Source: Lophium mytilinum
Lineage: Eukaryota
Assembly: GCA_010093605.1 (NCBI GenBank)
Contig: MU004184.1
Location: 940,801-1,004,800, forward strand
DNA: 64,000 nt
Reading direction: 5' to 3'
Every line of letters begins with the position of its first letter. The stretch's first letter is position 1. This document shows positions 9,617-59,814 of this stretch, piece after piece. The notes beneath the pieces are model-generated. The model saw only the letters and a list, made by a program, of their open reading frames with translations. It ran no database searches and was not told the DNA's origin. The translations under genes and the position numbers were made by a program.

Positions 9617-12423
9617 TCAATCTTTGGTTAAGTCCACGTGTTCGGTGGCCTTGAGGAGGTAGGAAGATGCCCCGTGGCGTGACGTAGACTTAGAAAGGGT
9701 TGAAGGCTCTTTTGCGGATCCGATATGAGGTCTGCCCACAGGGTCACGGATTGACGACGAACCCATATATCCGTTCGTGCTCGGGGCCAGAGGCAAAGCC
9801 GGTCGATTCGTCGCAGTAGCCCACGGGGAGAAGGGGGCGCGACTAGGAATTCTGGACGGAGTGCGTGTCATCAGTGAGCTTTGGAAACTACGCTGATCCG
9901 ACAATGGGGAAGAGCTCGCAGAGCTGCTTGATTGGGACTTTCGAGGGGCCGGCGGAGAGTCGTCGGTTAAATCAATGAGTCCAAGGCCCTTGAGAGGGCT
10001 GATGGAGGAGCTACTTCCGTATCCGCTTGTTTGAGAGCTTGAAGGCGTTGGGGGGTCGCTTCGTGAACATTGAGTTGGGGAGTGGCCTGGTCTGCTCTGG
10101 GAACGGAAAGTCCGTCGAGATCCGAACGTGCGATTCGGAAGTCGACATTTGAGGCGCGGAGTGATCGATCCTCCAAACAACCGTCGTTCAGATTTCACCC
10201 GACTGCTAGGCGATGAAGGGAAGGAAGGGGGGTTCACTTCCTCGTCTGAGGAGTCGATGCTGATCGGGTCCTGTCGGTTCTTCGTCTTTGAATGCAGGAA
10301 AAGACGAAGTTCCTGAATGTCGGATTCTTCAACGTCGAACGGTAACAGCGTGTCTTCTCCGCCAATCTTGCCCCCATCGAATGCTTCCAGAGTATGCCTA
10401 ACCTGTTCAAAGACCGCCTTAGCCATAGTAGGCGGCCAAGCATTGCCAACCACGCGTAAGGCTTCCGTCAGGCTTCCAGTGAGGTGAAACCCAATTCGAA
10501 AGTCTTGCAGGTACGCAAACTCCCGGACTGTGAAGTTTCTCCTTCCGTCATAATGCCAGTTGTCTCCTCCGTTGCATGTTATTGTCGGGAGTATCTTGGT
10601 TTTCGGGTCGTAAGGCTCTTTATAAAGCCTAGCTTTAGCTTCCGGGTTGTGATAATAATCATCTCTAGCGGGGTCCAAGCGAAGGGGCTCCAAAGCGTCC
10701 CAAATAGACTTGAAGCGCTTGAGCCCAGACCCAGGCACTCCATGGGTAGGCTTTGGGAATGGCGGCAGCGGAGTCCCGCGACTAAGCACAATTCATTAGT
10801 GTCTATGTTGCAAATTTGGTGTTGAAATTTGACTTACCGCGCCATGATTATGATAAGTCGCTTCCGCCTCTGGGCGACACCGAAGTCTGCTGTATTCATA
10901 ACCTTCCACTTGAAGTCGTAGCCAGCTTCTCTGATGAGACAGAACATTGATTTCATGATGTCTTTGTGTATCGCGATGAGCCCGTCCGACTCTTCAATGG
11001 TCGCAACTCGAGGTTTGATCTGCCGAAGTAGATGACCCACAAGAAACAGAATATCGTAGTTCGCCTGGTCATCCTTGCCGGTACGTGTGTGTGGTCTAGC
11101 GACGAACGGGCACGGAAAAGAGAGGTGACACAAGTCCGCGCGAGGGTTCTGGGGATCAAAGCCGTTCGGTGGGAATAACTGTGCTGCCATTTTGAGACAC
11201 TGGACGCCTGGATGATTGAGTTGGTAAGTCTCGCAAGCATTCTTGTTGAAATCGAGCGCCAGTTGAACTCTGAAACCAGCCATTTCAGCTCCGTCCGAAG
11301 TAGCCCCACCCCCTGAAAAGATATCAAAGAATCGATACTTAGAGGATTTCCGGCCAAAGGCAGCCCGGCTCCTCTTTGGACCAGAGCTGATCAGTTCTAT
11401 CGAAGGTTGCCGCTTGACAACAATATTCTTAGCCTTCAGTGAGGTGAAGACCGTCTTGAGTTCCCTCGGATTGTCGTTGTCGTCAACGGAAATGGGCTGA
11501 TTTTGATTCCCCTCATTTCCCATGCTCGGAAAACCACTCTCGGTTCCATGGTCTGCCTCTTTATGGTATAACCTCCTGATCTCTCCGGAGTACGACTTGC
11601 TTTGTCTACGCCGATGAGTGGCATTATCCCAATAGATGCTCTCAACATATCGGCAAATCAATCTACCACGGTGGAAGATCTTCATTAGATTATCGTCTTT
11701 GTCTTCAGTGAGATTGATGTTTGCTAGGGAGCTGTGGTCCTGAGTGAAGGATAGATTTGGGTAGTCGGTGTTTGTCATGATCATGTTCCTCTTTCTAACA
11801 ATTCGGTCAATTGGAATATCTTCCATGGCCTGAACGAAAGCCGGCCGATCATCGTCCTCGTCAATATTGAGCACCATCACTAGCTCATTCATCTTCTTTG
11901 GGTAGACGTTCGCGCTGTGGAACACATGTTCCTGGACTTCGCGGTCGCGTTTGGGGCTAGCCATATATTTTGTCCTTCGAAAGATGTGGCCTCGGAAGAA
12001 GATCTTGTCATCGGTTCGACAGTCTTGGAAGATGGCACTTATTCTTAGGAAACTCCCGCTGTGACGACCAGGTGGCAATTCTTTCTCGGGTAGCAGTTCA
12101 ACTGTATCGCCCGGCTGGACATTAACGCCCCCGGGTATCCTGGCGTATTGTAGTTGGGCAAAGGGAGGGGCAATCGGCAGGTTCCGCTCTGGCACCTTTG
12201 GCCTTGGCGTACTCGGAGACTCTTGGGGTTCGTCCTTGATGATCGCTTGCCTGAATTGCTCCAGCAAGCGCTGTTGGGCTGCCGGGTCTTTCTCCTCATC
12301 CTCAAGAGAATCCCAAAAATCTGACGCTTGATACCCGGGCTCTTCATCGTCCGATATATATATGTTCTCCTCTTCATCGTCCAACAGGTCGATGATCTCA
12401 AGCGCTGGTGCCATTTTCGACAT
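9617..12423 (-). CDS. rid: C5 DNA methyltransferase of the RID/Masc1/DmtA family (2 coding exons, intron 10782-10837)
   Basis: Motif I FFDIFSGGGA, IV HLSFPC, VI ATIEES (RID-type EQT/EET-like, not ENV), VIII FGVAQRRKRL, IX RNFTVREFAYLQDF, X VGNAWPP. N-terminal GDTVEL..FLRI..RGHIFRR region; long Ser/Pro-rich C-terminal tail. Confidence 0.82.
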
Positions 12424-12469
12424 TATCGTGGGTTCAGGATAACTGTCAATCTGACAATCTTGGGAGATT

Positions 12470-12712
12470 CTAGTGGGTATGGTTGGCGTTGGAAGAAACC
12501 GTCTTCGTCTAAGAGGAGTGAGCCGAGGTAGCGAGTAGATGTGGCGCTGGTAAAAACGTAGAAGTGGACAGGCTGCGGGCTCACTTACGCAGAACTCGGA
12601 CGACAGAGCTGAGCAGACCGTCTCGGCCTCAGAAAGCCGGCCCCGTGTCTATAGGGTTTGTACGTCGTCTTGATGGAGGTCAGAGGTGACGAGATCTTAC
12701 GCTGTTAATCAT
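12470..12712 (-). other. Putative spliced upstream ORF (36 aa) in the rid-like 5' leader
   Basis: ATG at 12712; GT-AG introns 12649-12700 and 12509-12588 with CTGAC/GCTCAC branch sites; TAG at 12472-12470, 47 nt before the main ATG. Confidence 0.4.
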
Positions 12713-21969: not shown

Positions 21970-22699
21970 GGGGTGGGCTTTTGCTGTATGCATGCTTGCG
22001 TTTGCTGGCTTTGGATTGGGACGTGGGGCTCTTGGGTTTGATCGAAGTGAGCGAGATGGACAGGAGGGGTGGCAGAGCTGTCCATTCATCTCGACGGATG
22101 GAAGGTTGATACCAAGGGCGGATAGCCTGCGTGTACGATGATGAGAGCGGAGAAGAGCTTTGGTTCATGAAAATACTTACGAATTACTAAATTAATGAAG
22201 TATGAGACTGAAGCTCTCCACACGTGCTTGAAATTACTTGAGCCTAGCTAGGGAATCACGTAGAGTACTAGGCCATGAGTCTAGGCACACATTTGCTGCT
22301 ACTAAGGTGCCGCTTTTTGGAAGTTGAATACCAATGTCAGGGGCGGCTTCATTGACATGAAGCCGTTCAGTCAAAAGGCAGTTCACATTGCGCTGCGCAA
22401 GGTTTGACATCGCATCTGGAGTTCGGAAAAACCGTGGGGGTACCCTGGCAGTGGCGGATTAATGTGCATAGACTTATGGCCAGTTGCTGGATGGTAGTAT
22501 GTTATGAATTTGAGGGCATGGATATACTACGTCTCTAGCTTCGACCTCGCTCTCTTAACACCACTGTCAGGAGTGCCCTGGGCAACACGACTTTGGTCGA
22601 TCAAAGGATGGTCTGATTTGCACTGGGGTGAGCTTCATGTTGAATTTCGAGGGTCTAATTTCAGGCAGTCCCCGTCTTGTATACTCGCCGTTCTATGTA

Positions 22700-23232: not shown

Positions 23233-23989
23233 TAGCCTCGCCGTAATGACAGTGGATCACGTTGATAATACCTTGTATACTCGGCATTTATTACATCCTC
23301 GACATGGAGAGTTTTGATCACGTTAATAGGGTCTTATATACTCGCCGTTTACTGCAGCCTCACCATGAAGCTCAACACTCTATACTGTAGGCATCTTCAA
23401 CTCTCCGTATTGTGCCAAATTGAAATAGTAACGTTTCCGTTGTGGTTACAACTACTATGACACAACAATTTGTTCCCGTTCAAGCTCGGACAGTTTAGAA
23501 GAAAAAGATATGGCGGTATGTAGAAGGAAAGCGCACCTTTGGTCTTTCCTAAATAGTAGTTCCCTCTTCATCACCCCTCAAGTCTACCTCCTCACCATCT
23601 CCCACTACCAGTTCGTTAGATATCGCGCACGTTACATCGTGGCCCGCAAGATGGCATTCGTCGAAAGCAATGGAGAGAGATCGAGGAAGCGGGCTCGAGT
23701 TTCTACCCTACTTGAAGCATGACATGGCCTGTTACTTGACCAAAGCTTGCAGATTGGGAACGATTTAACTGAAACGCCATCGTCGCTAGTATAAATTCCA
23801 TCACGGCATGTCTCATCTTTCATGTACTTACCTATGCATAAGACCAGTCAATATACACATAACATGTTGAGCCCATCCAACATCAACCCCGTGCTAATTA
23901 TCCTTTCTTCAACACCTTCTCGCCCGACCACCTCACCCAACGACGGTTTATCTACATCAAGACTGCCGTCCCCGCTATCATCTACTCTA

Positions 23990-26900
23990 GTATATATGCA
24001 CCCTCTTGCTATACTTCACTTCTTACTTACTTTTACCCCAGTCACCTACACCAACGCCCTCTCCTGCAGAGTGTAGATGGACGCTGTGCATGTTGTCGGC
24101 GTTATGTACCAACAAGCTCATTAACATGCTCAGACTAAACAGTTAGAAGCTCTACAAAGACCTCGCCAATAAGCGGCGTGGGTTTATAGCCTCAACCGAG
24201 GAGAAGTGCTCAACATCGGCCAAACACCCCAGCGATTGCAACAGCAATCGCTCAGTACGCCTTCACATCTTCTCTCGAGAATGTTGCTGATCACCTTCAG
24301 GTAGACCACGAACTCCAAACTCCATTCGTCCGTGGGCTCGACTTTGTTGATGCCACACTCCGCTCCATGTGGAAGACGACTCTCATGGTTATTAACACCT
24401 CCCATGACAAGAGACTGTCGAAGGGTTTGACGACTAGTCCTCCGCCACGACATTGGACCAAATAGGATGCCTTTTTACACTTCCCATAGGTGTCATTGTT
24501 TGCCAGTTTTGTAACTCTCCCCAATCCTGTCCTAGAAGCCTTGACGAGTGCTAGATAGAAAGGGGGAGCGCTTTTATATTTGGGAAAGAGGGAAAGGAGA
24601 GGAGATACGTGGATGTCATGTGAGTTCAACCGGGTTCTAGGGCAGTGAGGGAGATTTTGCTTGGTAGGGCTGGGAAGAACGGTAGAGAGGTCTCGTGATA
24701 CCCACGTGCTACTTATTTCTTCCGGGTATATAACATCTTCCACCTCCCGTCCTCCTTGCTCTAAGGTAGAGAAGGAGATGGTGGAAAAGGATCAAAAACA
24801 GATATACTTAGTTACCATGTTCGTTGCGTGCGTCTTAAACGCATTGACAAAGACGACTATGGTGTCTCCGGAACTTGGGGTGTTGCAAAAAAGGCTATAG
24901 TACAACCGTAGGGTGGTGAGGCGAAGACGCTAGCATCGCGATACTGACCGTTATCTTCTCCTGCTCCCTATTACGATCAGGTGTAAAGCGCTTAGTATAG
25001 TAGAACCCGCTAGTACACGTGTTTAAGAGGTGGAAGTGGTGGAGAGTATTATGAGACCTAATGGCTGTTCCACCGCCCGCCATTCTCTATTGCTTGGTGG
25101 CATGGACGTTGTTGAACACACACCCGGCCCAGCAAACTCTATTGCTTTTAGTATATATTTTTTGAACAATCACACTGCCATAGCCTAGTAGTAACTGTAT
25201 TGTTGAACAAAACGAAGACCCATAACATATATGGCAGACTAATTTTGCATCTCCCCTGAGGCTGCAACTGCTCTAAGGTTTCGAAGGAGAGGATTGGAGA
25301 GGCTTTAATACTCGCGAAGGAGAAAGCGAAGGAAGTAGCACGTGAGCATTATGTGGATTAGTCGGATATTTGATATAGAGAGGTAGAGGAAGAGACGACA
25401 GCTTGCGAGCGAGATAAGCAAGGAAAGGGGGCGTGATGGTCACGTAATAGCTAACTTTAGGGGGTATAAAATCTCTTCGTAGCTCTAGAGATGGTTCCTC
25501 TTAAAGCGAGGAGGAAGAAGTCTAAGGTGGAGGAAGCAAAACACATAACCGAGTGTACCATATGCGATGTTCGCAAGCGGTTCCTGGGAAGTTAGCGCGA
25601 GGCGCTTGCGCTCCCTTTTAACCTTTACTGGTAATCTCCACCACTTCTCTTTGCTCCTGCTTATCGAAGTCTGCTCCAAATCCTACTCTCCGGTGTCCAG
25701 CGTTCTTAGTAAGCTTTATCCATGCCTTACGGAGATTCTTACCATCGTTAGCCTATCCACTCAAACCGGCCCCCCTATTAGTTCATTGCATCCTGCTTTT
25801 ATTCCCACCGCTCCATTGGGCTTTCGCATTCTCAATTTGCCCACCTCCCATTGAAGCCCACTCTCCAGTGATGTGAAACCCACCTCACATCCTCCGAGAC
25901 ATAGAAATTGATCTCTGGCAGTTTTGAGCACCTCTCATGATGTACAACACGATGATGTAGTATTTCGAAGACTACCGCAACACCCCACCACATGGAATGG
26001 AGATTTTGCAAGAGTTCAAACCATGCGGTGCTTGATCTTTGATTTTGATCCCACAGACACCGGCCACATCCAGAGGTGTGTCTTTTCCTTTTGCACCTCC
26101 TCGAGGTTGCAACTGTCCTGTGGATCAAAAAGAAGGAGACCAGAGAAGTTTTTAACCCCACCGCTAACAGTACCCACGTGCCTTCCACGTGCTTCCCTCA
26201 TCCCCGCTGGTAGAAGAGAGAACCGCACCTAGGCCCATCCCCCGGGGAGATAGCGGGCAGGAAGGACAATGGCCACGTGATTACGTAGTTCTATATATAT
26301 AAAACCTTTCCCAGCTCTACAAGACATCTTCTTCCAGGTCAAGAAGAGAGCAAAGGAGCAAAGGAAATTAAAAAGGAACCTCAAACGGCGACATGTCCGT
26401 CGTTTCTGAGGTAAACTCTCCACACTTCGCAAAGCTATGGTGCAGCTGTTCCGGGGAAGTTTGTTGGATTATGACAATCACCCACAGCAATCAATGCTAG
26501 TAGCAAACAGGGTCGTTCCATGTACATAATGTAGCGTCCCAACCTAATATCAGATGCTACGGCCTACAATCAACAAAGTTTGAGTTTCTGCGTATTGCTG
26601 CTACTCTCCACCACTTGATTACCCTGCTGCTGCTGCTCGGAAACCGCTCTCGATCTCACTGCCTGGTATCTCGACATCTTAATGAGCTCTGACTCTGCCT
26701 TTTCATGCTGCTCTTCGTCATCGCTACGTGAAGTGTAGCTCCAGACCTCCTCCATTGTGTCTGTTTCAGTGCCGGTTTTGCTCCCGCTGCTCCATTAATG
26801 CCATCTCCATTGCCTTTTGCACGCCTCCCCCCATATGGGAACAGGCTGCAGGTTTTTTGAGACCCACTGCCACAGATCTGCCCCCACATTGGTCGAATTC

Positions 26901-27016
26901 TTCTCTTTCTTTGAACCACTGGCGAAGCTATCTTAAAAACCCTTGAGAAACCTAACTCGCAGGAGGTGGGAAACTATTTATACCTACCGAAGGAAATAAT
27001 TTTCTAGGGTCACGTG
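23990..27016. other. Array A: alternating-orientation CACGTG+TATA promoter modules with non-coding spacers
   Basis: TATA-like boxes at 24572-78(-), 24727-33(+), 25304-10(-), 25465-71(+), 26149-56(-, degenerate), 26298-304(+), 26975-82(-). CACGTG at 24703, 25016, 25339, 26175, 26186, 26274, 27011. No convincing CDS; left boundary uncertain. Confidence 0.7.
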
Positions 27017-27152
27017 TCGATTATGACTAAGACTCAAACCCCTATACACAACACACACCATCTTGAAACCTCCCCGTAAATGTTAAAACTTTGAACGATT
27101 TTCTTGAACATCTACACCATGTCAGCTATACTACACCACCCCCACTCCCTGT

Positions 27153-29137
27153 CTAAAACGTCGTCTCCGTATTCCCCTCCCCCATACTCTTACTCCCACT
27201 ACTCCCACTCTGAATCGCCCCCAAAATCCCATCAATATACCCCGCCCCACTCCACTTCTGATGCGTCAACACATCACACCCAATCTCCTTCTCCCTTCTC
27301 TGCACCAAATTCACATACGCCAGCATCCCCTCATCCTTAAACGCCTTACTCAACTCACACGTGATCGTCGCCGTCGAATGCAGTCCCGCGAGACTAATCA
27401 ACTGCAGCACAAACCCATGCTTCGCGAGGTCCCACACAAACGACTTGAGCGACGCCTCCGAGAACCCGTGGCCCATCCAGTTGAATGAGGGGGAGAGGTT
27501 GTACACGAACTTCTTCCCCGGGTACTGCGAGCGGATCTCGCCGGCGAACTTGCCGGCTTTCTCGACGGAGGGGTCGGCCGTTTCGACCCAGAGGAGGTCG
27601 GCAAAGGGCGCGAATTCTTTGGCGCGTTTGGTCGCGGCGGCCATGCCGGCGCGGTAGTGGTAGAAGCCTTCGCGTGTGCGGGGCACGTCCCAGTTGAAGT
27701 AGACGGGGGATTTTGTGAATTTCGCGGCGAGGGCGCGGCGTTTGAGGAGGGAGAAGTTGGGGTTGGCGGCGGATTCGGAGACGTAGGTGTCGATGGTTGA
27801 TTGGGGGGCGGATTCAGACTTGAGATGGGCTACGACAGCTGTGGGGATGTTAATAAGTTGGGAAGATGGAAAGGGGGTATGGTTAAAGGGGTACCAACCT
27901 TCGTCGAACGTATAGAGCTTGTTCTTCTTCACCCACGCCGCTTCGTAGGCGTCGATTTCCGCACCGGGCGCCCCTGCGGCTTCCATGTCTTGCAGCACTT
28001 CGGACAGCGGCTCGGCTTCTTCGGTCACGCCGAGGATGAATTCGTGGTCGCGCACGTCGACGGCGCTGCTGATGAGTTTACCGCTTTCTGAGTCGGTGCG
28101 CGCGATGACGAGGTTCTCGCAGCCCATCATGTCCCACTGAAAGCGGGCGGCGACGAGGCGGTTGATGTGGTCGCCGACGGGCACGAGGACCTTGCCGGCG
28201 AGATGGCCGCATTTCTTGCCGCCGTGGAGCTGGTCCTCGAAGTGGACGGCTGCGGCGCCGTTTTCGGCGAAGAGTTTGGCGAGTTTGATGACGGCTGAGA
28301 GACCGCCGTGACTGAGGGTTTAGTTAGTTTATATCATGGAGTTGCGGAGTTTGAGCACTCACCCAGTATCACCATCCGCAATAATAGGCCTCATGTAGTC
28401 CACATAAGGAGTCTTGGCACGCTCTTCAGCGCTCAGTTTCCTCCGATTATCCCAATTCCTGCGGTCATGGAGCTGCTGGGCCTTGAAAAGCCGCTGAACC
28501 TGGTTCGGCACAGTATTGTACGGGTAGTCACCAAAATCAGCAGACACCTCGTTGGTCGAAGTCAACACGGACGAGCAGGCCCAGCCCGAGATGTACAGCA
28601 CCTCTTGGTTCGGGGCCTGCTGGGTCATTTGCACGGGGTCAATGGCACCCACTACAATGATAGAAACAAATGTATTAGTTTATGATATATTGTACAGCTA
28701 GTTAGGAGGTCATGGGACGCACTCGTGTGGACGGGCTCCCCCTTCGCGGCCCGCTCCTCGAACAGGTTGAACAGCTTCCGCGCCATCAACGAGCTTGGGT
28801 ACGTCTGCTGGAGCGCTCCCCGCTTGCTGACCACATCCTCCGCTGAGTATGGCCGCTTGATGTCCTTGTAGCGCGGCGATGCCCACCATTCCTTCACCTG
28901 TTGTACTTGGGTGTCGAAGAGGGCATCTTCGGCTTCGCCAGCTTTCGAAGCTTCCGAGAGCAGCTGGTATGAGTCGGCGGGGAGGGCTATGGATACGGGA
29001 GGGTTTACTGGGGCGAGTGCTGAGCTCGACATGCGGTATGCTGTGGTGGAGAGTGGTCGGAGTAGTGAGGGCTGCTTGTTAGCGATCTTAAGGTGACGGC
29101 TTTGTCGAGCAACTGATCGTGAGACGGTTCGCAACAT
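27153..29137 (-). CDS. mclA: Mitochondrial 2-methylisocitrate lyase (isocitrate lyase family)
   Basis: Arg/Ser-rich targeting peptide; [77 protein letters not shown]. Three introns. Confidence 0.93.
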
Positions 29138-29730
29138 GACGCCTGGAGTCTTGGTAGAGTCTCAGACAGTGAAGCAGCGGACCAAAGGCTCTATAACGGC
29201 AGACGAAGGCGAATATCCGTCAGCGTGCACTGCAGCTTCTCCGCGGCCGTGAATTATAGAATGCCCTGGGTCCTCGGGATTGGCTCGGGTATTCTATCGT
29301 GAAGGAAGTCGTAGGGCGCGGAGGGAATCGTCTGGTGTCTTCTGCGAACCACGGCGGCCGTGTCTTTCTCTTGTGGGCCTGGCACGGTTTAATGGCTGCT
29401 CGGGTTCTGTTTGTTTGTGTGTGCACATCCAGGAACGGCGAGGATATGTTTCTCCCCTCCGCAGGTCGGACCGAACACCCGAGGTATGCGAGTGTAACCA
29501 TCCCGCCAGACCGTCTTGGTCGGCCATTGCCGAGCTTGTTGAACCACACGAAGGCTGGAACGTGGGCCATGTTGCCATCTGCTGGCTTCTGATCCCGCAA
29601 ATTTTCTGCTCTTATAACCCCAATTGCCGCCCCGCGCCCGGTGAAAGCTTGAAAAGAGACTGTTCGCCTCCCCACAAACTTCAAAACAGCCACAGCTACC
29701 CCGCGGTACCTACCCCACACTCCAATCGTC
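29138..29730. promoter_or_regulatory. Bidirectional promoter of the methylcitrate genes, with FarA/FarB(CTF1)-type CCTCGG sites
   Basis: Divergent ATGs at 29137(-) and 29731(+); CCTCGG at 29272-29277 and CCGAGG at 29479-29484. Confidence 0.55.
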
Positions 29731-31382
29731 ATGGCATTGAGCGCGAGATCCGCGTCGAGAGCTCTGAGGGCTGTCAAGGTGCGTGCCGGAGACATGGAGA
29801 GCCTTGATCATGTAACTAATAACGCGCGTAGCCCTCTACGCTGAGACCTTTTGCTTCTGGTGGGTCCTTTGAAGCTGTGTCCAGCCGACCCACGATGCTG
29901 ACCCCACCACAGTCCAGAGCTGCAGCTATGCGACATCCTCGGAGCCAGATCTCAAGGAGACTTTCAAGAAGGTCCTGCCTGCGAAGAAGGAGCTCCTGAA
30001 GAAGGTCAAGGCCAATGGCGACAAGGTCATCGGCGAGGTCAAGGTTGAAAACACCTTGGGCGGCATGAGGTACACACGGGATCACAGTTATTCACCTCCA
30101 ACAAACACTAATTTAATTCTAGAGGTCTCAAGGCCATGATCTGGGAAGGCTCGGTCCTAGACGCCAACGAGGGTATCCGCTTCCACGGCAAGACAATCAA
30201 GGACTGCCAAAAAGAGCTCCCCAAGGGCACCTCCGGCACTGAAATGCTGCCGGAAGCCATGTTCTGGCTGCTTCTCACCGGCGAGGTCCCAAGCGTAGGC
30301 CAGACCCGCGCCCTCTCCCGCGAGCTGGCCGAGAAGGGCCAGATCCCCAAGTTCGTCGAGAAGATGCTGGACGACTTCCCCACCGACCTGCACCCAATGA
30401 CGCAGTTCGCCTGCGCTGTCTCAGCCCTGAACTACGAGTCCAAGTTTGCGAAGGCGTACGCGGACGGCATCAACAAGGCCGACTACTGGGAGCCCACCTT
30501 CGACGACTGCATCAGCCTGCTCGCGAAGCTGCCCACCATCGCGGCCAAGATCTACCAGAACGCGTACCGCGGCGGTGGAGCTCTCCCCGCTCAAATCGAC
30601 CTCGAGCAGGATTGGTCGTACAACTTCGCCGCCATGCTGGGCAAGGCCGGCAAGGAGAACGAGGGCTTCCAGGACCTCCTCCGTCTATACCTCGCGCTCC
30701 ACGGCGACCACGAGGGCGGCAACGTCTCGGCCCACGCCACTCACTTGGTCGGCAGCGCCCTCAGCGACCCCTTCCTCAGCTACTCCGCCGGTCTACAAGG
30801 TCTCGCTGGTCCCCTCCACGGCCTCGCCGCACAGGAAGTCCTCCGCTTCATCCTGCAGATGCAGGAAGCTGTCGGTGAGAACTTTTCCGAGAAAGACGTC
30901 TCTGACTACCTCTGGAGCATCCTCAAGTCCGGCCGCGTGATCCCCGGCTACGGCCACGCCGTGCTGCGGAAACCCGACCCTCGCTTCGAGGCGCTGATGG
31001 ACTTTGCGGACGCCAGGCCCGATATTGCGAAGAACCCGGTGTATCAGCTCGTCAGGAAGAACTCGGAGGTTGCGCCGGGGGTGTTGACTGAGCATGGAAA
31101 GGTAAGATATAACCCATATTTGTACAGTTATCGAGTTTGGAGGGATGAGGGCTAATGTGTGGCGTCTAGACTAAGAACCCCTTCCCCAACGTTGACTCCT
31201 CCTCCGGCGTGCTCTTCCACCACTACGGCTTCCACGAGACTCTCTACTACACCGCTACGTTCGGCGTGTCGCGTGGCTTGGGACCGCTTGCGCAACTTAT
31301 TTGGGACCGCGCGTTGGGCCTGCCGATTGAGAGGCCGAAGAGCATTAACCTCGCTGGTATTTTGAAGCAGATTGGCGCATAA
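29731..31382 (+). CDS. mcsA: Mitochondrial 2-methylcitrate synthase (citrate synthase family)
   Basis: [87 protein letters not shown]. Divergent from the methylisocitrate lyase. Confidence 0.93.
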
Positions 31383-31577
31383 GCGACGACTTTACGAATG
31401 AAAGAAAAGGGATGAAGATGGGAACGTCTTGTATATAATAAATAGCTAGAGCGCTAGGATTTCAATGGAATTGGTTTGAAAGAACGCTGCGGGACTGAGA
31501 GAGGTGTGTTTGGCTATCATGTTTGCGTGTGCGGAATGCAAGGGGTCTGGCTCTTTTAAGGGAAGTCAGATGGCTTT

Positions 31578-34500
31578 CACGTGATTCCGCTCCTCTCGTT
31601 TTCTTGTTCTCCTATGGAAGGCTTACCGGCTCTCGCTTTCTTGGTTCTTTAGAGGTTTCATGGGGTTTGATAAAAAGTTACACCAAGGTGCTTTGTGATG
31701 TTGGAGGAGGCTCTGTGGTGCAACAACTTGAAGGGACGGTTTGATGGGTCGGGTTTGGTCTCGCGTCGACTAAAGCACACACCTACCTTATGGGAGTGGA
31801 GGAGTCCGCGGGGGATCAAAAACAAAGGAGGGAAAGAACCGATGGTGGCGAGAGTGGTGGCGGCAGTGCTATCACTTCCTGATAGTCAGCACCACTACGC
31901 AGGCCTAATGGAAACTACATGTAACAGACGAGGCTACCAAGCAACAATGACAACAAGAGCCAGATAAGGGGAGGGTTACGAGATGGTGGTGAGCATCTCC
32001 AACTTCGCGTACTGCTCAACAGTCATCGGGGTCCTCTTGCTCCAGTTTGACACTCCCACCAAGATCCTCCTCCAGCTCCATGGTGTTATGATGCCCCTCG
32101 TTTTACCAGGAAGCCGCACACATCAGACGGTGGTGCAAATTGTTTTGCTTTCCGGTTCCTCCGCTCTCTCTGCGCAAAAGAAAATGTGTTCTGTGGTGGG
32201 CTTTTATACGTGTCGACGGGGGGGTTGAAGCTATCACGTGGGTATCACCGGAGTACCCCTTTCCTCTCTTACCCTCCTACCAAGACCGTCGCCTAGCAAG
32301 CGAGCAGGAGGCACGTGAAACCCGAGGGAGCACGTGGAGAACACGCGCTGAATTTCAGTGGTGAGGTATAGAATCTTCCCCCCACTTGTTGTTCCTATCG
32401 TGAAGACAGTTGTGGCCTCAAAGGAGGTGCAACAAGCAAAGGATACCAGAAGAAGTGTCCACTCTCTGCAAAAATCCAACTGCGCATCAATACATGTTCG
32501 TGGAAGAAAACTAAATCTACACTCCTTCAATGGAAGCATTTGGGAGTCGGTGTGGTATTCACGAGAAGGGACTAGATGGAATAGCTGGGGTCAGTACTGG
32601 GGCCATCCCTAGTGGACTGTCTGATGGTGAACTTCAGGGATTAGTTGTAATGGAGACGTGGAGCAGGACATAAGGTTGTTGGCTAAATGAAGTCTTGGAG
32701 CTGGGGGAGAATAGGAGGAGTAGAGAATGGTGGTTAGTATCTTTACTCTTTCATATTCTCTTCCCCAACTCCATTGCATCCTAACCTTGTCATCTTTGAT
32801 ACTCCCACCAAGAACCTCCAGCACCCATTGCGAGTTGTCCCTCGCGTTTGACAAGAAAGTCAGGCACATTAGACGCTTGTCTGGACTATTTTACTTTCCA
32901 ACTCCCTTCGTTCCTCTGTATGAAGAAAGCTGTATTACAGAGCGGAGCTTTTATACCTGTCGAAAGGGAGAAGTGAAGCTGTCACGTGGGGGCCTCGTGA
33001 CTACTCCCTTTCCTCCTGAGCAAAGTCATCGCAGAGTTTGGTACGTTTCTATCGTCAAATCGTCGAAATCACGACATCTCGTGCCCCTCACGTGCGTTAC
33101 GTCTCTACCTTCCCTCATCTCCTATATAAACCTCGCTAAGTCCTGCTTCTTAAGTTCCTCAGAGGTTTGGTGGGGGGCTCGGGCTTGTTCAAGATAACAC
33201 AGCCGGGGACCCCATGTTGTGGTGGAGCTGGGAGGTGAAAACGAACAGCGAAGATGAGAATGGCTTCGGCCATTGTTTGGTTTCGCTTTGAGCAAAACTG
33301 CCTCTTGGACTTCTTGATGATTGTGAAAAGAAAGGAGATCAGGACAAGTGAGAGCGTGGTGGGGTCGGGTGTGTTCAAACCATGACAAGTGCCATCAAAT
33401 GGCAAATGGAGATAGCTGGTGGAGAGTTCGGGGCTGGAGGACGAGATTTTGGATGTGGTGGTGATAAGTATGTTCGACGGATTAAAACAAGGAGTACAGA
33501 ATAATAAAGCTGCTACTAAACACCGAGCTTCAGAACTGAGAACAAGAAACGGGACTAGTAGATAGTGGTCAGCAGCATTGCGAGGATCGAACAGTCCGCC
33601 CTCAACTCGTGCGATAGTGGACAACGTCGTTTTGCACACCCCACCCAGACTCCCACGCCATGAGAGCACCCTCACTCCAGATTTTTGCTCCCCTCCACCC
33701 AGCCCATGGTTCGGTCGTGTCACATAGTTTGCACAGTGGACCCAGATCCCACACCATGGACATGCAGCTATTCCATTTTTTAATCCCTCCCGCATTCCAA
33801 CCTCCTCCCTGCAAAAAAGCCCTCGTCCACAACGGCGGTGGAGGTTTTATACCCAGACAAAATCGACCGCACGTGAGTCTCACCTGACCTCCCCTTCTTT
33901 CTCCGTTCCCACCCTCGCAGAATCACATGCAATAGCCACCGTCTAGGTAGCGAAGTCGCGTGACGCACACATGACTTCCTCCAATTTCCCTTCGCCGGCA
34001 GGTATATAAACCTCGCCAGCTTCCACCTCTCAAGCTCTCCAGAGGTGTCGGGCGTCGGTTTTGGTCTTGTTCAAATATTAATTAAGAAGAAACTAATGGT
34101 AGAGTTGTTGTGGACAGTGCAAAAACCCTTCGTCCCAGCCAGCCATGGAGTGCGTGCGAAAGAAAAACATGGAGCGAAAGTCGCCTCATGGAGTAGCGGG
34201 AGCAACTGGAGTCGGAAATAAACACGATCCTAGCAAAAGGCAATGGAGAGGTGGAGGGAAGGATAAAAAACGATTGGGGCGTAGCGAGGGAAGTTGGAGG
34301 TGGTGCAGGGAAGAATCGTGGTGGTCTTCACCTCTTACTTTTGATAACGAGGAAGAGTGGAGAAGGAAGCCGATACCTCGCAACGAAGTAGCGAGTAATA
34401 GATAGAATGGTTCTAAGTAGATGGTGAAGGGAATTACTAGTGTGCGGGGGATATTCCGAATAGCCATCGGACTGGAGATGCTCATCGATTGCTGGCTCCT

Positions 34501-34663
34501 CCAGACTCCCACTGGTCCATCCAATACTTGAACCGTGGTTTTGACAGCAAACAACGCGCTTCCATAGGGTATTGCTCGGTCTAGTTTGTTGACTCCAATT
34601 TCCTGCTGCTTCTAGTTGAGGGGTCTGTAGAGAACATGAACGAGGTTTTATAGTAGTCACGTG
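31578..34663. other. Array B: four tandem ~750-900-bp units bounded by convergent CACGTG+TATA promoter modules
   Basis: TATA-like boxes at 31613-19(+, degenerate), 32202-08(-), 32367-73(+), 32949-55(-), 33123-30(+), 33845-51(-), 34003-10(+), 34646-52(-). CACGTG at 31578, 32235, 32312, 32331, 32983, 33089, 33870, 34658. Units are visibly paralogous. Confidence 0.78.
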
Positions 34664-35079
34664 AATAACATCACCCCTAACACACCACCTCAAAAAAACA
34701 CGTCTCAAATTTTCTAGGACAGACGTAGGTATGGAGCGCAGCGCAAGCTCCCTCCTACCATCCTCCGTCCGATCGCAAATCCCTAAGCGGAAAAACATCC
34801 TGTGGGCGGGTATCGCATTCAACATCAAGATACGACCGAACCCCACTCGTCTATAGAAGCGCGTCATCCATATCCAAGCAACCCTTGACATTACCCGGAC
34901 AGAAAAAGCAGTCAACAGCCAGAAGCCCCCATCTATAAGTGACGCCGAGAAATGCAGTGAATCATGAACCAGAAAAGATAGTACGGAGCCAGAGCTCGTC
35001 TCTATAAGCCACTCGGTCCCATGAAAGTGACTAGATTTAAATCAGTGATTTTCATGATACATTGTCGTGGTCACCATGT

Positions 35080-38000
35080 CTATGCGTCATCTTCGGAGTC
35101 TGGCGGGTGGGGTGTGCCCTAATCAACACAATTAGTACTCGAATTTCGTTTGGCATATGGTGTGAGAGGGGATTAGAACGTACTTTAGGGCTATTAAGCC
35201 ACTCGATATGCCTCAAACGACGCCTAACTTCTCTCTCCTTCAGCTGCGCACGGGTCAACTTCTTCTTCTTGCGCGCGCGGAACTTCATATCCCCGTTCCC
35301 TTCAGCTTCAGAATTGACAGCACTGGCAGCCGCAGACGCAGCAGCAGACGAAACGTTAGAGCTAGCAACACTGCTACCGGGACGGCTGGAATCCTCGAAG
35401 CGGTCCATGGAGACAGCGAGGAAGCCCTTTTGCACAACACGGCCGTCGGCAACGTGCCACTGCTCGGGACAGAGCGCGCCGACGAACTCTTCGTTATGGG
35501 AGATCATGACGACACCGCCCTTGTAATCGCGAATAGCGACGGCGAGACCGCCGAGGGAGTCGCGGTCCAAGAAATTGGTAGGTTCGTCGAGCACAAGGAG
35601 ATGGGGGTTGTTCCACATAGCTCCAGCGAGGACGACCTTGACTTTCTGGCCACCGGAGAGACCGGAGATCTCATTGTGGTTGGCGATTTCAGGGTCTAGA
35701 CCGACGTCCTCGAAGTGCTTGGAGATGACCTTGGGTTCGAGGACACGGAAACCGAGACCTTCACGGGAAGCTTCGTGATCGTCGAATTCCTGAATGAGCT
35801 TCTGGAAGCCGAGTTTGAGGAGAGTCTCGCGAGAGATCATGGTGTTGTACTTGGGAAGCATGTTGATCCATTTCCTGAATACTCGTTAGCTTTTGTGATT
35901 ATTGAACCCTAAGGACAGTCGAGCACTTACACTTCATACTGAAAGCTCTTCTTGTACTTCTGTCGGCCAATCAAAGCCTCAATCTTCTTCGCACCTTGTC
36001 CGTCACCAATATCGACGGGGGTTTCCATCTGGGCCTTCTCGTCAGCGGACATGACACGAGTCTGCTTCATCAGCACCTCGCGGTCATCTCCGTTGGCATA
36101 ACGCCACTGCAAGTACTGATTGGGAGTCTTTTCCATGTGCATCTCGACGTGCTCTAGAGCATGCTGCTTGATGTAACCGATACGCAAGTTAGGATGCTTC
36201 TCGACCTTACCCTCCTGAGGGACGACTTCGCCAGTGAGAATTTTGATGAGAGTGGATTTACCGGCACCATTGGCACCAATAATGGCAGTTCGGGACGACA
36301 GCGTCAGCGAACAGCTGACATCATGGAGAGAAGGCTTCGATGCTCCAGGGTAGGTGTAGGTACAGTTGGTCATGCGCAGGATAGATCGGCTCATAGACTT
36401 GACACCAGTCAGAATACCAGGAGGCGGAAACTTGAAAGATACCTGGGAAGCAGAGAGCGTGTAGTAGCTCTTAGCTTCGGGTTTCTGCCTGACGAAAGCA
36501 GCGAGATTGCCCTTGTAGCAAATCAACTTCTTTTGCTCGTAGTGGTAAATGTCTGTGCACACATCATCCAAGAAACCGGAGTCGTGAGAGACGATCAAGC
36601 TGGTGATATCGGTGTGAGACTTGAGATAGTCCTGGAGCCACTTAACGTTTGCAACGTCCAAGTGATTGGTGGGTTCGTCAAGGAGTAGGACATCAGCTCG
36701 CATCAACATAGCTCTGGCCAGAGCCAGTTTCATCTTCCAACCACCGGATAGAGAGCCGACTTTGTGGGATTGCCTGCCTTCGGGACCGGAGCTGAAGCCG
36801 ACTTCTTCCAAAACCGCGATAACTCGATCTTGGCCTTCAGAACTAACATCGGGATCCTTAGAGACGAACTCGAGAATACTGAGATCCGCATCTTCACCCT
36901 GGTTGTGCTCTACGAAGCAAGTCTTGACTTCGTCCTGGGGAGGGAAGCCCTCAAGTTTGCCGCCAGCGATACTTCTCATCAATGTTGATTTACCGGCACC
37001 ATTTCGCCCGCAGAGACCGTAGCGATGGCCCTTTAGAAGTCTGAGGTTTGTGTGAGAGAGCAAGAGCATACCACCGTATCCGAGAGAGAAGGTCGCGTTG
37101 ACGATTTCGACCTCGCCATCGTCTTCCTTGACTGGCTGACCGAACTTGCGGTGGTCCTCGTCAACGTAGTACTTGTGAACAGATTCTGCGACTTTAGCAC
37201 CAGAGTCACCGTTCATCAACGGAGACAGATAAGGCTCGATGCAAGCCACTACTCGCTGAAGCTGGCGCTGGTTGACATCTTCGGCAACCATTTCCGCGAT
37301 GTAGCCCTTAGCGAGTGCGAGAACCTCTGCATCTCCAGGGAAGTTCTGAAGGCCTCCAACTGAGTTTATGTGCTTTTCCAGAACCGGTGTGACGTCGGCT
37401 GCCACCATTCGGCTGATGGCATCAGCATTGACCTCGCCTTTGATAGCCATGGCGTTATCAATGACGTCCAGTGCTCTTCCTGCGATCTCACGGACTTCAG
37501 GAAGGGAAGCGCGGTTGACAACAGACGTGACACCGGGCTTGAGCTTCGGCAAGAAAGCGCGTGCTTCAATGGGATCGTGAACAAGCTTTGTCAAGTTCTC
37601 TACGACTACAACCGTCTGTCGCAGCACTTCTTGAGATGTGGCAGGTGTGTTCAGAGAACGCTCTAGAAGCGGTGTAAGCAGCGCAAGAACTGGCGAAGTG
37701 ACGATGGCCACGAAAGTAGTCTGCGATAGAGCATGGATCGCCTTTTGTTGAGATTGTGTAGAAGGGTTTTCCATCGCTTTGATCAAGATCGGGATTCGGG
37801 GAGCAACATCGTCGTTTTGTAGGAGGGTGGTAAGGCCGGTCATAGTTTTCGAGGCTTGCTTTCCAACCTGTTGTATCCAAATTAGCAACGGCGTGAATCC
37901 TGAGATTGATAGAGATACTGACCTCTGCCTTGAGATCGTGCATTCCGCTTTCTACGATAGGAATGAGACCCTCGAGTTTCTTGCCCATAGACTCGCGGAG

Positions 38001-55032: not shown

Positions 55033-55117
55033 GCCCGGCTGGCACAATTGGCTAGCGCGTGAGACTTTTATTCATTAAGAGATCTCAAGGTTGAGAGTTC
55101 GAGCCTCTCGTCGGGCG
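55033..55117 (+). tRNA. tRNA-Lys(UUU) with 11-nt intron (55071-55081)
   Basis: Acceptor stem GCCCGGC/GTCGGGC; anticodon arm TGAGA-CT TTT A^A-TCTCA; T arm GAGAG-TTCGAGC-CTCTC; downstream T-runs. Confidence 0.92.
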
Positions 55118-57598: not shown

Positions 57599-59814
57599 TC
57601 AGTGTGTCTCAAGTAGCTCAATTCCCTTTGCCTTCGCCAGATTCCGGAAATTTCCCAGAGGCGTAACCATGAATGGAATATCCGCCCATGCCGTAAGAGC
57701 CTCGTAGACCATGGAGATAGCAGCTGGGATCTCGTCTAGTACTGTGCCGCAAATGGGACTAGGGTACACCAAAAGCAGGATCATCGTTACAGCGCAAGTG
57801 CTACGCAAAGTAGTATGCGAAACAATGGTTTTGTGTAGAAGTGTCCCTTCGACAGTACGTAGATGTAAGATACATATCATCAAGCACTCTTTGGCTTGAG
57901 CTTCGACGTCCGGATCCACGGCATGCCCACGAGAGAAGCCTGGGGAGGTTGCGGAGTGGTGACTTGTCTCCAGCATCCGAAGAAGAAATGGCCAAGATAT
58001 TGTAGCGATGAGCCCAAAGTATTGAGTGCGTAGGTGTGCTTTATGAGGATCGAATACTGTCGATGTGTCGATCGGGAACTTGAGTGAAGGCGGGAGGTGG
58101 TTGTACCATGATTGGAGCTGCGATCGTAATTCGAGTGCTACCAGCGGGGCGTATATTGCAGACCCAGACTCGAATCCCACAGTCTCCACGGCATCAGTCA
58201 AAAGGCGGCGGAGAGTAGCTATGGCCAGAAAATAGTACAGGCCACTTCCTTGTCCCAAATCACTGACGCAAGCCGCACCAGATGGCAGGGGGATATCTGC
58301 CTGGAACGCTCGAAGCCCGGTGGGCTGGAGCTCTAGGCAAATCTCTAGCTCGTTTTCCAGTACATAGCAAGCCCAGTACACCCGCGCGACTTGATTTTGG
58401 AAAGCCTCGTCTCGGCTACGCCAAGCAGTCTTCAGAAGTAGCATACAGTCTCGTGATGCCGTTGAAATGCAAGACCAAGCTCGCAGTGGCCGCATTGAGG
58501 AAAGCATGTAGCCAGCTTGTAGAATTCGACATACGATCCTTTCGATACCAGTATCATCTAAAGACCATTGCAATTGCTCTAGTATGAAGGTCGCATGGTT
58601 GAACCACAGCTCTTCATCTTTGACATCGTGTCCTCCATCATACAGTATATCTTTCTTTTCGAGGACCGCAGCTATCGCATAGCTGAAAAGCGTGATGCAC
58701 GTCATAGAGTCTGTGTTTTGGAACATATGAGCTTCGGCGTATCGTGCATAGGATGAATATGTCTCGCTGTCAAGCAGTGGCATCCACGATAGATAATCGG
58801 AAGCGAAGATGGATTGAAGAGTCCGTTGCCGTCTTGCAGAGATGTGAAGCGAGTCTAAGCGTGCGAAGGTAGCACGCCCATGATCACGCATTCCATTCTC
58901 TAATGATAGTTGCGATTCAAAGAACTTTGCGGTGTCGTTGTAAGTAAATGACCCTAGAGAAGGTGGCCCATTGAACGTGAGAAGTGTGGGCATTCGGTGA
59001 CCGAGCTGCTGTCCGTTAGGGTTCGACCGCCGGGGACTGTAGATTGCAGGCCGTAGCATCTGATATTGGGTTGGGACGCTACATTATGTACATGGAACGA
59101 CCCTGTTTGCTACTAGCATTGATTGCTGTGGGTGATTGTCATAATCCAACAGGGACGGGTCATTTGGGACAGCGGCGGCAAGGTGAATTTCACATTCGAC
59201 TGGCTTTCTGCATGGCGTTTTCCCATCTCCGAAGGCTGTGAGACTCGAGCTATAGCAGCAGTGGTATGCGAACTTGCAATCGTTTCCGGGGGCGAAAAGG
59301 CTGCTGCGTGAACTTGTTCGTCGGTTCTTGATAGAAGTCTGTCCAAGTTGGCTAAGAGAGTTTGCAGAGAATCTTCCACGTTTTCTAAACGACTTTCGAG
59401 ACGAGTTAGAACGTCTTTGGTGGCGCTGAGTGGCTCTCTGGATGTTCAAATTAGCCTGCATCCATCACTGGCAAAGTCAAGGAAGAAGAGCGGCTCGTAA
59501 GAACTAAACTGGAACAGCGGACAATAATGACAAAACACATACCTATCCCAAAGGTTCGGCTTTCGGTAGTTACAAGTAATTCCATTATCAATGCAATAGG
59601 AACACGCGGGTTTCTTCGCATCGCATCTTGTTCTCCGCGAGCGGCAAACTTCACACTTGAAGGTATGTCGGGTCAGCAAGAATTGTCGGTTATGTTTTTT
59701 TAGTCTTACTGCAATGGACACGCGTTTTCTAGGGTAGTCGACGCCTTTGCTATTTTGTTCTTCGATTGGAAAGGTCGGATTATTTTGTCGACTCTCTGGG
59801 GAGGTATCGTTCAT
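57599..59814 (-). CDS. Zn(II)2Cys6 transcription factor with fungal-specific middle homology region
   Basis: YPRKRVSIA/CEVCRSRRTRCDAKKPACSYCIDNGITCNY; RVYWACYVLENEL; YYFLAIATLRRLL. Internal exon structure partly uncertain. Confidence 0.88.

Follow-up and report, generated by a model that had tools for sequence, protein, structure and literature searches.

This analysis concerns two arrays of promoter-like modules in a 64-kb window (the whole stretch of DNA analyzed) of fungal DNA from contig MU004184.1 of Lophium mytilinum (Dothideomycetes, Mytilinidiales). Exon 4 of the citrate-synthase-family gene in the window matches a protein assigned by NCBI to this species with 100% identity. The arrays enclose a conserved, divergently oriented pair of propionate-metabolism genes situated mid-locus, with array A lying beyond the 3' end of the methylisocitrate lyase gene (mclA) and array B beyond the 3' end of the 2-methylcitrate synthase gene (mcsA). 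The elongation factor 3 (eEF3) gene has its stop codon approximately 415 nucleotides (nt) beyond the end of array B. The two arrays are candidates for a family of short noncoding transcription units.

23990..27020, no strand: array A, units A0 to A3; three bidirectional blocks and one single promoter adjoining the mclA 3' end
27153..29137, minus strand: methylisocitrate lyase gene (mclA-like), three introns confirmed by RNA joints; the central cargo between the arrays
29733..31383, plus strand: 2-methylcitrate synthase gene (mcsA-like), of the citrate-synthase family, four introns confirmed by RNA joints
31575..34665, no strand: array B, units B1 to B4; three bidirectional blocks and two single promoters, one at each end of the array

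The promoters that make up the arrays are as follows, with the strand of each TATA-like box given by the sign after its position and CACGTG referred to as the E-box.

24572..24733, no strand: block P1A; TATA at 24578- and 24727+, E-box at 24703, CACGTA 33 nt upstream of 24578-
25304..25471, no strand: block P2A; TATTAAA at 25310-, TATA at 25465+, E-box at 25339, CACGTA 24 nt upstream of 25465+
26149..26304, no strand: block P3A; GTTAAAAA at 26156-, TATA at 26298+, E-boxes at 26175, 26186, and 26274
26976..27016, minus strand: single promoter 26982-; E-box at 27011, 137 nt past the mclA stop; serves the long arm of unit A3
31578..31619, plus strand: single promoter 31613+; degenerate TATGGAA, E-box at 31578, 195 nt past the mcsA stop
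32202..32373, no strand: block P1B; TATA at 32208-, TATAGAA at 32367+, E-boxes at 32235, 32312, and 32331
32949..33129, no strand: block P2B; TATA at 32955- and 33123+, E-boxes at 32983 and 33089
33845..34009, no strand: block P3B; TATA at 33851- and 34003+, E-box at 33870, CACATG 35 nt upstream of 34003+
34646..34663, minus strand: single promoter 34652-; E-box at 34658, 11 nt upstream, the spacing outlier

All 15 TATA-like boxes reported in a preliminary description of the locus were found, and their strands alternate without exception. Canonical TATAWAW is present at 11 of the 15 positions, and the boxes at the other four (25310-, 26156-, 31613+, and 32367+) are degenerate and positionally homologous; an additional canonical TATA, at 25152+, lies within body A1. 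Back-to-back TATAs are separated by 142 to 168 nt, as originally described, whereas face-to-face TATAs, which delimit the unit bodies, are 583 to 728 nt apart rather than 570 to 715 nt.

The E-box occurs 25 times in the window, as opposed to 13.75 +/- 3.0 times in 100 shuffles. The arrays, which together amount to 6121 nt, contain 15 exact copies where 1.3 are expected (Poisson P ~1e-11), and the 57.9 kb of the window outside them contain 10. This recount agrees with the earlier tally of 15 copies in about 6 kb, with 14 in promoter intervals and an expectation then put at about 1.5. The 14 lie just upstream of TATA-like boxes, the exception, at 25016, falling within body A1. Of the 15 modules, 12 have an exact CACGTG positioned 11 to 36 nt above the TATA, and CACGTA or CACATG occupies an equal distance in the remaining 3. 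The interval from E-box to TATA is exactly 24 nt in five modules, 32 to 36 nt in ten (26156- having both), and 11 nt in one.

The sequence downstream of each TATA is equally regular. The segment from TATA+7 to +40 is pyrimidine-rich, an NAG begins at +35 to +40, and the segment from +40 to +190 is purine-rich with a positive GC skew, each in 15 of 15 modules. The modules share one layout, as had been proposed, and it is tighter than proposed. The order of CACGTG, TATA, pyrimidines, (Y)AG, and purines stood. KCAAMA occurs at +60 to +71 in 7 of the 15 modules. A strict module scan (CACGTG-N(8-45)-TATWWAW) returned eight matches in the arrays, one elsewhere in the window, and one in 829,660 nt of DNA from related fungi; this comparison set comprises 80 related loci carrying mclA, about 830 kb in total. 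The match elsewhere in the window, a CACGTG-TATA pair at 47578-, was rejected, the array layout being absent.

Composite E-box + TATA core promoters are characterized by an upstream factor site whose distance from the TATA box is fixed, and the array modules have such a site. From their sequence, the modules resemble a set of composite core promoters on which purifying selection has acted. The strand asymmetry starts at a fixed point after every TATA, suggesting that transcription proceeds from there. Promoters with CACGTG are bound by basic helix-loop-helix (bHLH) factors of the Cbf1/Pho4 type, for example at phosphate- or sulfur-regulated genes, and the array E-boxes may be sites for a factor of this type. 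Like those promoters, the arrays place an exact CACGTG near a TATA, with a T flank (TCACGTG) on 10 of the 15 E-boxes; unlike the known Cbf1/Pho4 targets, protein-coding genes that each have from one to a few sites, they have 15 sites in 6 kb and no gene. The two spacing classes recall plant small nuclear RNA (snRNA) promoters, in which the distance between the upstream sequence element and the TATA differs by one helical turn for RNA polymerase II (Pol II) and Pol III. In both cases, an upstream element is fixed relative to the TATA, with the two classes in the arrays 10 nt apart (24 versus 32 to 36 nt), and the products are short and noncoding, those of the arrays being predicted. The arrays differ from plant snRNA promoters in having no snRNA or small nucleolar RNA (snoRNA) homology and a different upstream element, and their polymerase would be Pol II by presumption.

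The arrays are related to one another by descent. Blocks of the two arrays match when one array is read in reverse orientation, and the matching blocks follow each other in mirrored order, such that P1A mirrors P3B (24546-24744 versus 34039-33834; 61% over 208 nt, E 6e-7) and P3A mirrors P1B (26054-26199 versus 32468-32324; 65.5% over 148 nt, E 1e-8). Adjacent units are also alike (B1 and B2, 65% over 315 nt; A2 and A3, 58% over 313 nt). Together, the mirrored blocks and matching neighbors indicate tandem duplication and one inverted duplication, by which array A would have come to mirror array B around mclA/mcsA. An alignment of the six bidirectional blocks has a mean column identity of 58%, with its invariant columns concentrated at TTTATA, at ACGTG/CACG, and at the second TATA. 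The unit bodies are nearly unalignable, with 11 short oriented islands common to them, above the 0 to 1 of shuffles. Since the duplications, E-box, TATA, spacing, and strand asymmetry would have persisted, whereas the bodies would have diverged until little of them could be aligned. That the geometry was kept while its surroundings decayed argues that the E-boxes and TATAs are used.

Within the bodies, the GC skew flips sign sharply at a conserved motif, TGGTGGNNAGYA. Allowing one mismatch, this motif has 24 matches in the window, where 6.9 are expected, and 9 of these lie inside the 6.1 kb of arrays. It coincides with the change in skew in six of the seven bodies.

25037..25048, plus strand: TGGTGGNNAGYA, the mid-body motif of unit A1, where the GC skew switches
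25632..25643, minus strand: mid-body motif of unit A2, 1 mismatch
26602..26613, minus strand: mid-body motif of unit A3, within the RNA contig beginning at 26588
31984..31995, plus strand: mid-body motif of unit B1
32728..32739, plus strand: mid-body motif of unit B2, in the loop of a strong local hairpin
33563..33574, plus strand: mid-body motif of unit B3, 1 mismatch
34422..34433, plus strand: mid-body motif of unit B4, degenerate, with 3 mismatches counted by eye; located where the skew switches

Every body is thereby divided into a long G-rich arm extending from one promoter (308 to 511 nt from TATA to motif) and a short arm from the opposite promoter (167 to 304 nt, the upper value becoming 190 nt after subtraction of a 114-bp insert). 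The long arms of A2, A3, and B1 to B4 are directed away from mclA/mcsA, and that of A1 is directed toward them. So sharp a change in skew is better explained by two abutting arms than by long overlapping transcripts, with some overlap at the motif possible.

RNA data for the locus consist of unstranded contigs from one sequencing run, which do not give strand, start, or level. The contigs are spliced, skipping short GT..AG introns in four genes of the window, which identifies the run as RNA. Two contigs enter the arrays. The first (26588-27838) extends from mclA to 565 nt past its stop, crossing the 26982- promoter and covering the A3 long arm and motif (26588-26982); the second (34288-35117) extends from eEF3 to about 790 nt past its stop, crossing the 34652- promoter, the B4 short arm, and the motif. 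Coverage in the bins 23335-25335 and 32006-33339 is zero and in the bins 25336-26002 and 33340-34006 is low (mean depths of 7.0 and 2.4), and all four bins are uninformative on expression.

The preliminary description raised the possibility that the face-to-face promoters form a double-stranded RNA/small interfering RNA (siRNA) system in which convergent 3' ends overlap and the resulting duplexes feed RNA interference, as at the disiRNA loci of Neurospora, where small RNAs arise by convergent transcription. There are seven face-to-face promoter pairs with no gene between them, the conserved motif sits exactly where the arms meet, and the eEF3-side contig passes the B4 meeting point by 130 nt (34288-34652 covered), although it is unstranded. 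In unit B2, a 37-bp imperfect hairpin is centered on the motif (32675-32795; -44.8 kcal/mol, z -3.4) and draws subthreshold matches to several microRNA (miRNA)-precursor models. A scan of all bodies, however, found a hairpin at the arm junction in B2 only (one of eight units; B1 has a z of +0.33), and the sharp skew flip favors abutting arms over long overlap. Nor is 11-mer complementarity between the arrays and mclA/mcsA enriched, with 9 and 5 matches per 2 kb as opposed to 3 to 18 in other bins, and we consider an RNA interference system quite unlikely. An antisense relationship to mclA was also considered: the array A motif has a 12-nt complement near the 5' end of the mclA coding region (29043-29054), which is no more than chance would give. 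The arrays resemble the Neurospora loci in being noncoding, in belonging to a filamentous ascomycete, and in having two facing Pol II promoters, predicted in the case of the arrays; they differ in consisting of regular paralogous promoters with a fixed E-box/TATA geometry and in a skew suggestive of abutting arms.

Whether each promoter instead serves a very small or fast-evolving protein, such as a micropeptide or the product of an orphan or de novo gene, can be evaluated from the open reading frames (ORFs) in the bodies. An ATG lies approximately 50 to 130 nt past each promoter, several in good context (CACCATGG at 32208-), ORFs of 20 to 219 amino acids (aa) are present, and orphan gene clusters are common in fungi. 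Against this, the reading frame is not conserved even between the best-aligned paralogues, in which the same DNA is read in different frames and indels are not multiples of three, and no start or peptide is kept. The ORFs beginning at the first ATG after the promoters are unrelated to each other, and several upstream ATGs precede longer ORFs. The best codon-usage scores of the bodies (0.08 to 0.33) are similar to those of intergenic DNA (0.11 to 0.36), and exons score 0.25 to 0.68, overlapping the bodies at 0.25 to 0.33. A six-frame comparison between units revealed no peptide similarity beyond that of the DNA, and none of the 77 array ORFs of at least 45 aa has a Pfam match. Large protein libraries were queried with two ORFs only, of 236 and 91 aa. 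The former, the longest in the arrays, has no match among 5.8 billion proteins. A search for CaaX pheromone-type ORFs produced two chance matches, neither of them behind a promoter. The earlier statement that no credible ORFs follow the modules is therefore borne out by codon usage, frame, Pfam, and peptide comparisons alike, and small proteins are a very unlikely explanation.

Unit A0 has the most protein-like body, with a 91-codon frame at 24190-24462 (plus strand) and a best codon score of 0.29. An exhaustive search with the 91-aa product gave three weak matches, which were rejected as homologues; the best of them owes its score to a 7-fold repeat within a 1680-aa protein that is unrelated. 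Unit A0 may be different in nature from A1 to A3.

Decayed mobile elements, in the form of solo long terminal repeats or MITE-like units with CACGTG...TATA ends, or decayed neighboring genes might also produce repeated units of this kind. The inverted CACGTG-TATA ends formally resemble terminal inverted repeats, one true small repeat is inserted in A3, and TpA/ApT, an index of repeat-induced point mutation (RIP), is slightly above the window value of 0.75 (array A, 1.0; array B, 0.85). The second RIP index (1.09 to 1.12) is nevertheless outside the RIP range, with a transition/transversion ratio of 1.1 to 1.4, and what the unit ends have in common is two short motifs rather than sequence. No transposase, reverse transcriptase, or integrase domains were detected in the arrays with Pfam, and, aside from the A3 insert, no copies of the arrays occur in the remaining 58 kb of the window or in the 830 kb from relatives. 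An origin from mobile elements or gene relics is highly improbable.

The repeat inserted in A3 is dispersed and lies outside the array system.

26462..26575, no strand: 114-bp dispersed repeat, inserted in unit A3

The 684-nt face-to-face spacing of A3 includes this insertion. A second copy, at 59038-59151, is 97% identical and in opposite orientation. The repeat is MITE-like in that its terminal inverted repeats are short and imperfect. Many partial, loose-ended RNA contigs pile up on 26462-26575 because the repeat is dispersed, indicating further copies in transcribed regions elsewhere in the genome.

The decay of neighboring genes can be assessed from related fungi. Among the 39 related loci that are 9 kb or longer, only three do not keep the divergent mclA/mcsA pair, but arrays are present in 0 of the 80 related loci, and blastn returned no matches to them, so that the synteny comparison suggested in the preliminary description shows a widely kept gene pair from which the arrays are absent. 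By sequence comparison, the arrays are lineage-specific. Five relatives examined, among the ten closest, have long ORFs at the array positions, and in the three that were checked, these are GH3 glycosidase and methyltransferase genes. Synteny is rearranged: in the closest related loci, the GH3 gene lies between mcsA and eEF3 (31383-35082 in the window) and the methyltransferase gene lies downstream of mclA; in one of these loci (L006), eEF3 is in the opposite orientation. The arrays were rejected as relics of these genes, the window having no trace of either, and also as decayed mclA or mcsA: a frame in A0 has a 38-aa similarity to the mcsA of relatives (E 0.16 to 0.4), and tblastn and blastn searches against the window genes were negative.

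We favor the interpretation that the arrays constitute a lineage-specific family of about 15 short, coregulated, noncoding Pol II transcription units, and we give it about an even chance of being correct. The sequence establishes the geometry and its conservation, the paralogy, the absence of a coding signal, and the restriction to one lineage; use of Pol II, start sites, transcript lengths, coregulation by a single E-box factor, and any biological role are inferences. The noncoding transcript battery envisaged at the outset is retained as regards promoter-like modules that accompany no protein gene and are not repeat copies, but the skew argues against broad overlap of its convergent units. 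Several results weigh against this interpretation. No array sequence matches Rfam 15 at the gathering score, with only subthreshold miRNA and long noncoding RNA (lncRNA) noise up to an E value of 10, and the 15 predicted 200-nt RNAs fold no better than shuffles (mean z of -0.29), so that nothing indicates a specific RNA function. Similarly, box C (RTGATGA) occurs in 0 of the 15 predicted transcripts, setting them apart from box C/D snoRNAs. The two contigs that reach into the arrays run on from mclA and eEF3 without a break, which fits read-through or long 3' untranslated regions. In addition, what is conserved is a set of DNA motifs that might function even if no productive transcription took place, peptides that are very short or evolve rapidly would be compatible with the sequence, and the search for copies covered only the 64-kb window and the 830 kb from relatives.

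Motifs that act as DNA are the basis of a further explanation, in which the arrays are nongenic chromatin or regulatory elements whose nucleosome-free, factor-bound islands insulate, roadblock, or tune mclA/mcsA or shield them from the highly expressed eEF3, with any RNA a by-product. Strong conservation is confined to DNA motifs and their spacing while the bodies drift, the arrays are placed symmetrically on both 3' flanks with the first E-boxes 137 and 195 nt past the stop codons, and the T flank found on 10 of the 15 E-boxes is that preferred by the nucleosome-excluding factor Cbf1. A binding platform, however, would not leave an asymmetry that begins about 40 nt past each TATA and extends for 150 to 400 nt in 15 of 15 modules, nor would it account for the oriented motifs kept within the bodies. 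Moreover, the shared mclA/mcsA promoter itself contains no CACGTG, and relatives run the same gene pair without arrays. We regard a purely regulatory array as unlikely. A more elaborate version of the transcription-unit interpretation treats the arrays as a fungal regulatory device of a new kind, in which short convergent units, built in mirror image around the methylcitrate-cycle genes and driven by one E-box factor, produce collisions or duplexes at the motif, and hence small RNAs or a transcriptional barrier that controls or insulates the genes; this we consider quite unlikely.

If the arrays are transcription units, each block of about 150 bp would be a compact bidirectional promoter whose two core promoters are built alike, with a palindromic E-box at one of two helical-turn-spaced distances (24 or 32 to 36 nt) above the TATA, followed by the pyrimidine tract. 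Initiation would occur at or near the NAG, 35 to 40 nt past the TATA, and the RNA would begin purine-rich and G-skewed, with a predicted length of about 270 to 470 nt for the long arm and 130 to 230 nt for the short arm. The arms would meet at TGGTGGNNAGYA, where their 3' ends probably form, such that units are arranged as divergent pairs and neighbors converge on a conserved 3' motif. Conserved promoters with diverged bodies are the pattern that lncRNA-type genes would be expected to show, since their function depends on regulated transcription or on a small number of short RNA motifs and not on a protein.

The predicted short noncoding RNAs and the bidirectional blocks of about 150 bp resemble those of yeast CUT/SUT-type transcription. 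In CUT/SUT pairs, a protein gene usually occupies one side, and dedicated elements are absent from the cryptic side, whereas the array blocks have an E-box and a TATA on both sides, neither of which is coding, and are arrayed and kept as paralogues. The sexual-stage lncRNAs of Fusarium graminearum provide an example of lineage-specific fungal lncRNA gene clusters (PMC6094484). Such lncRNAs share with the predicted array transcripts noncoding Pol II transcription, a narrow lineage, and promoters better kept than bodies, but they are known only as scattered single loci, and the arrays are mirror-image tandems of one promoter design. The titles and abstract openings of the literature on L. mytilinum contain nothing beyond taxonomy and comparative genomics, and at that same level no equivalent of the architecture emerged, in keeping with the original impression that it had not been described. 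Its parts (E-box, TATA, bidirectional promoter, and noncoding units) are familiar; what is unfamiliar is their regular, paralogous, mirror-image arrangement, with a conserved meeting motif, around a conserved metabolic pair.

Should the modules fire, they would provide 15 natural paralogous minimal promoters with a fixed geometry amid diverged surroundings, and thus a system for determining how the strength and directionality of promoters in filamentous fungi depend on bHLH site, helical phasing, and TATA. The arrays would then also represent a young noncoding gene family, formed by tandem and inverted duplication, that replaced ordinary genes beside a deeply conserved pair, and would allow a direct test of the influence of convergent noncoding arrays on their neighbors. 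If the arrays are silent or merely read through, the finding reduces to oddly regular intergenic DNA in one little-studied species.

Additional features occur in and around the locus. An unbroken RNA contig spans the entire divergent promoter region of mclA/mcsA (29137-29733), indicating that the 5' ends of the two genes overlap or that transcription covers the spacer. At 29272-29277, within this spacer, lies CCTCGG, the site of the fatty-acid regulators FarA/FarB. To the left of array A, at 23256-23352, there is a tandem duplication of about 60 nt (GATCACGTT...TATACTCG), both copies of which have CACGTT beside a TATA-like word without the array layout; the word CTTGTATACTCGCCGTT of this duplication recurs at 22672 (22672-22690). 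The sole Rfam match in the window at the gathering score is a tRNA gene at 55033-55117. Two adjoining ORFs at 9620-12648 (minus strand), located 11 kb from array A, match the C-5 cytosine DNA methyltransferase family, one its C-terminal and the other its N-terminal half, and are probably one gene with an intron.

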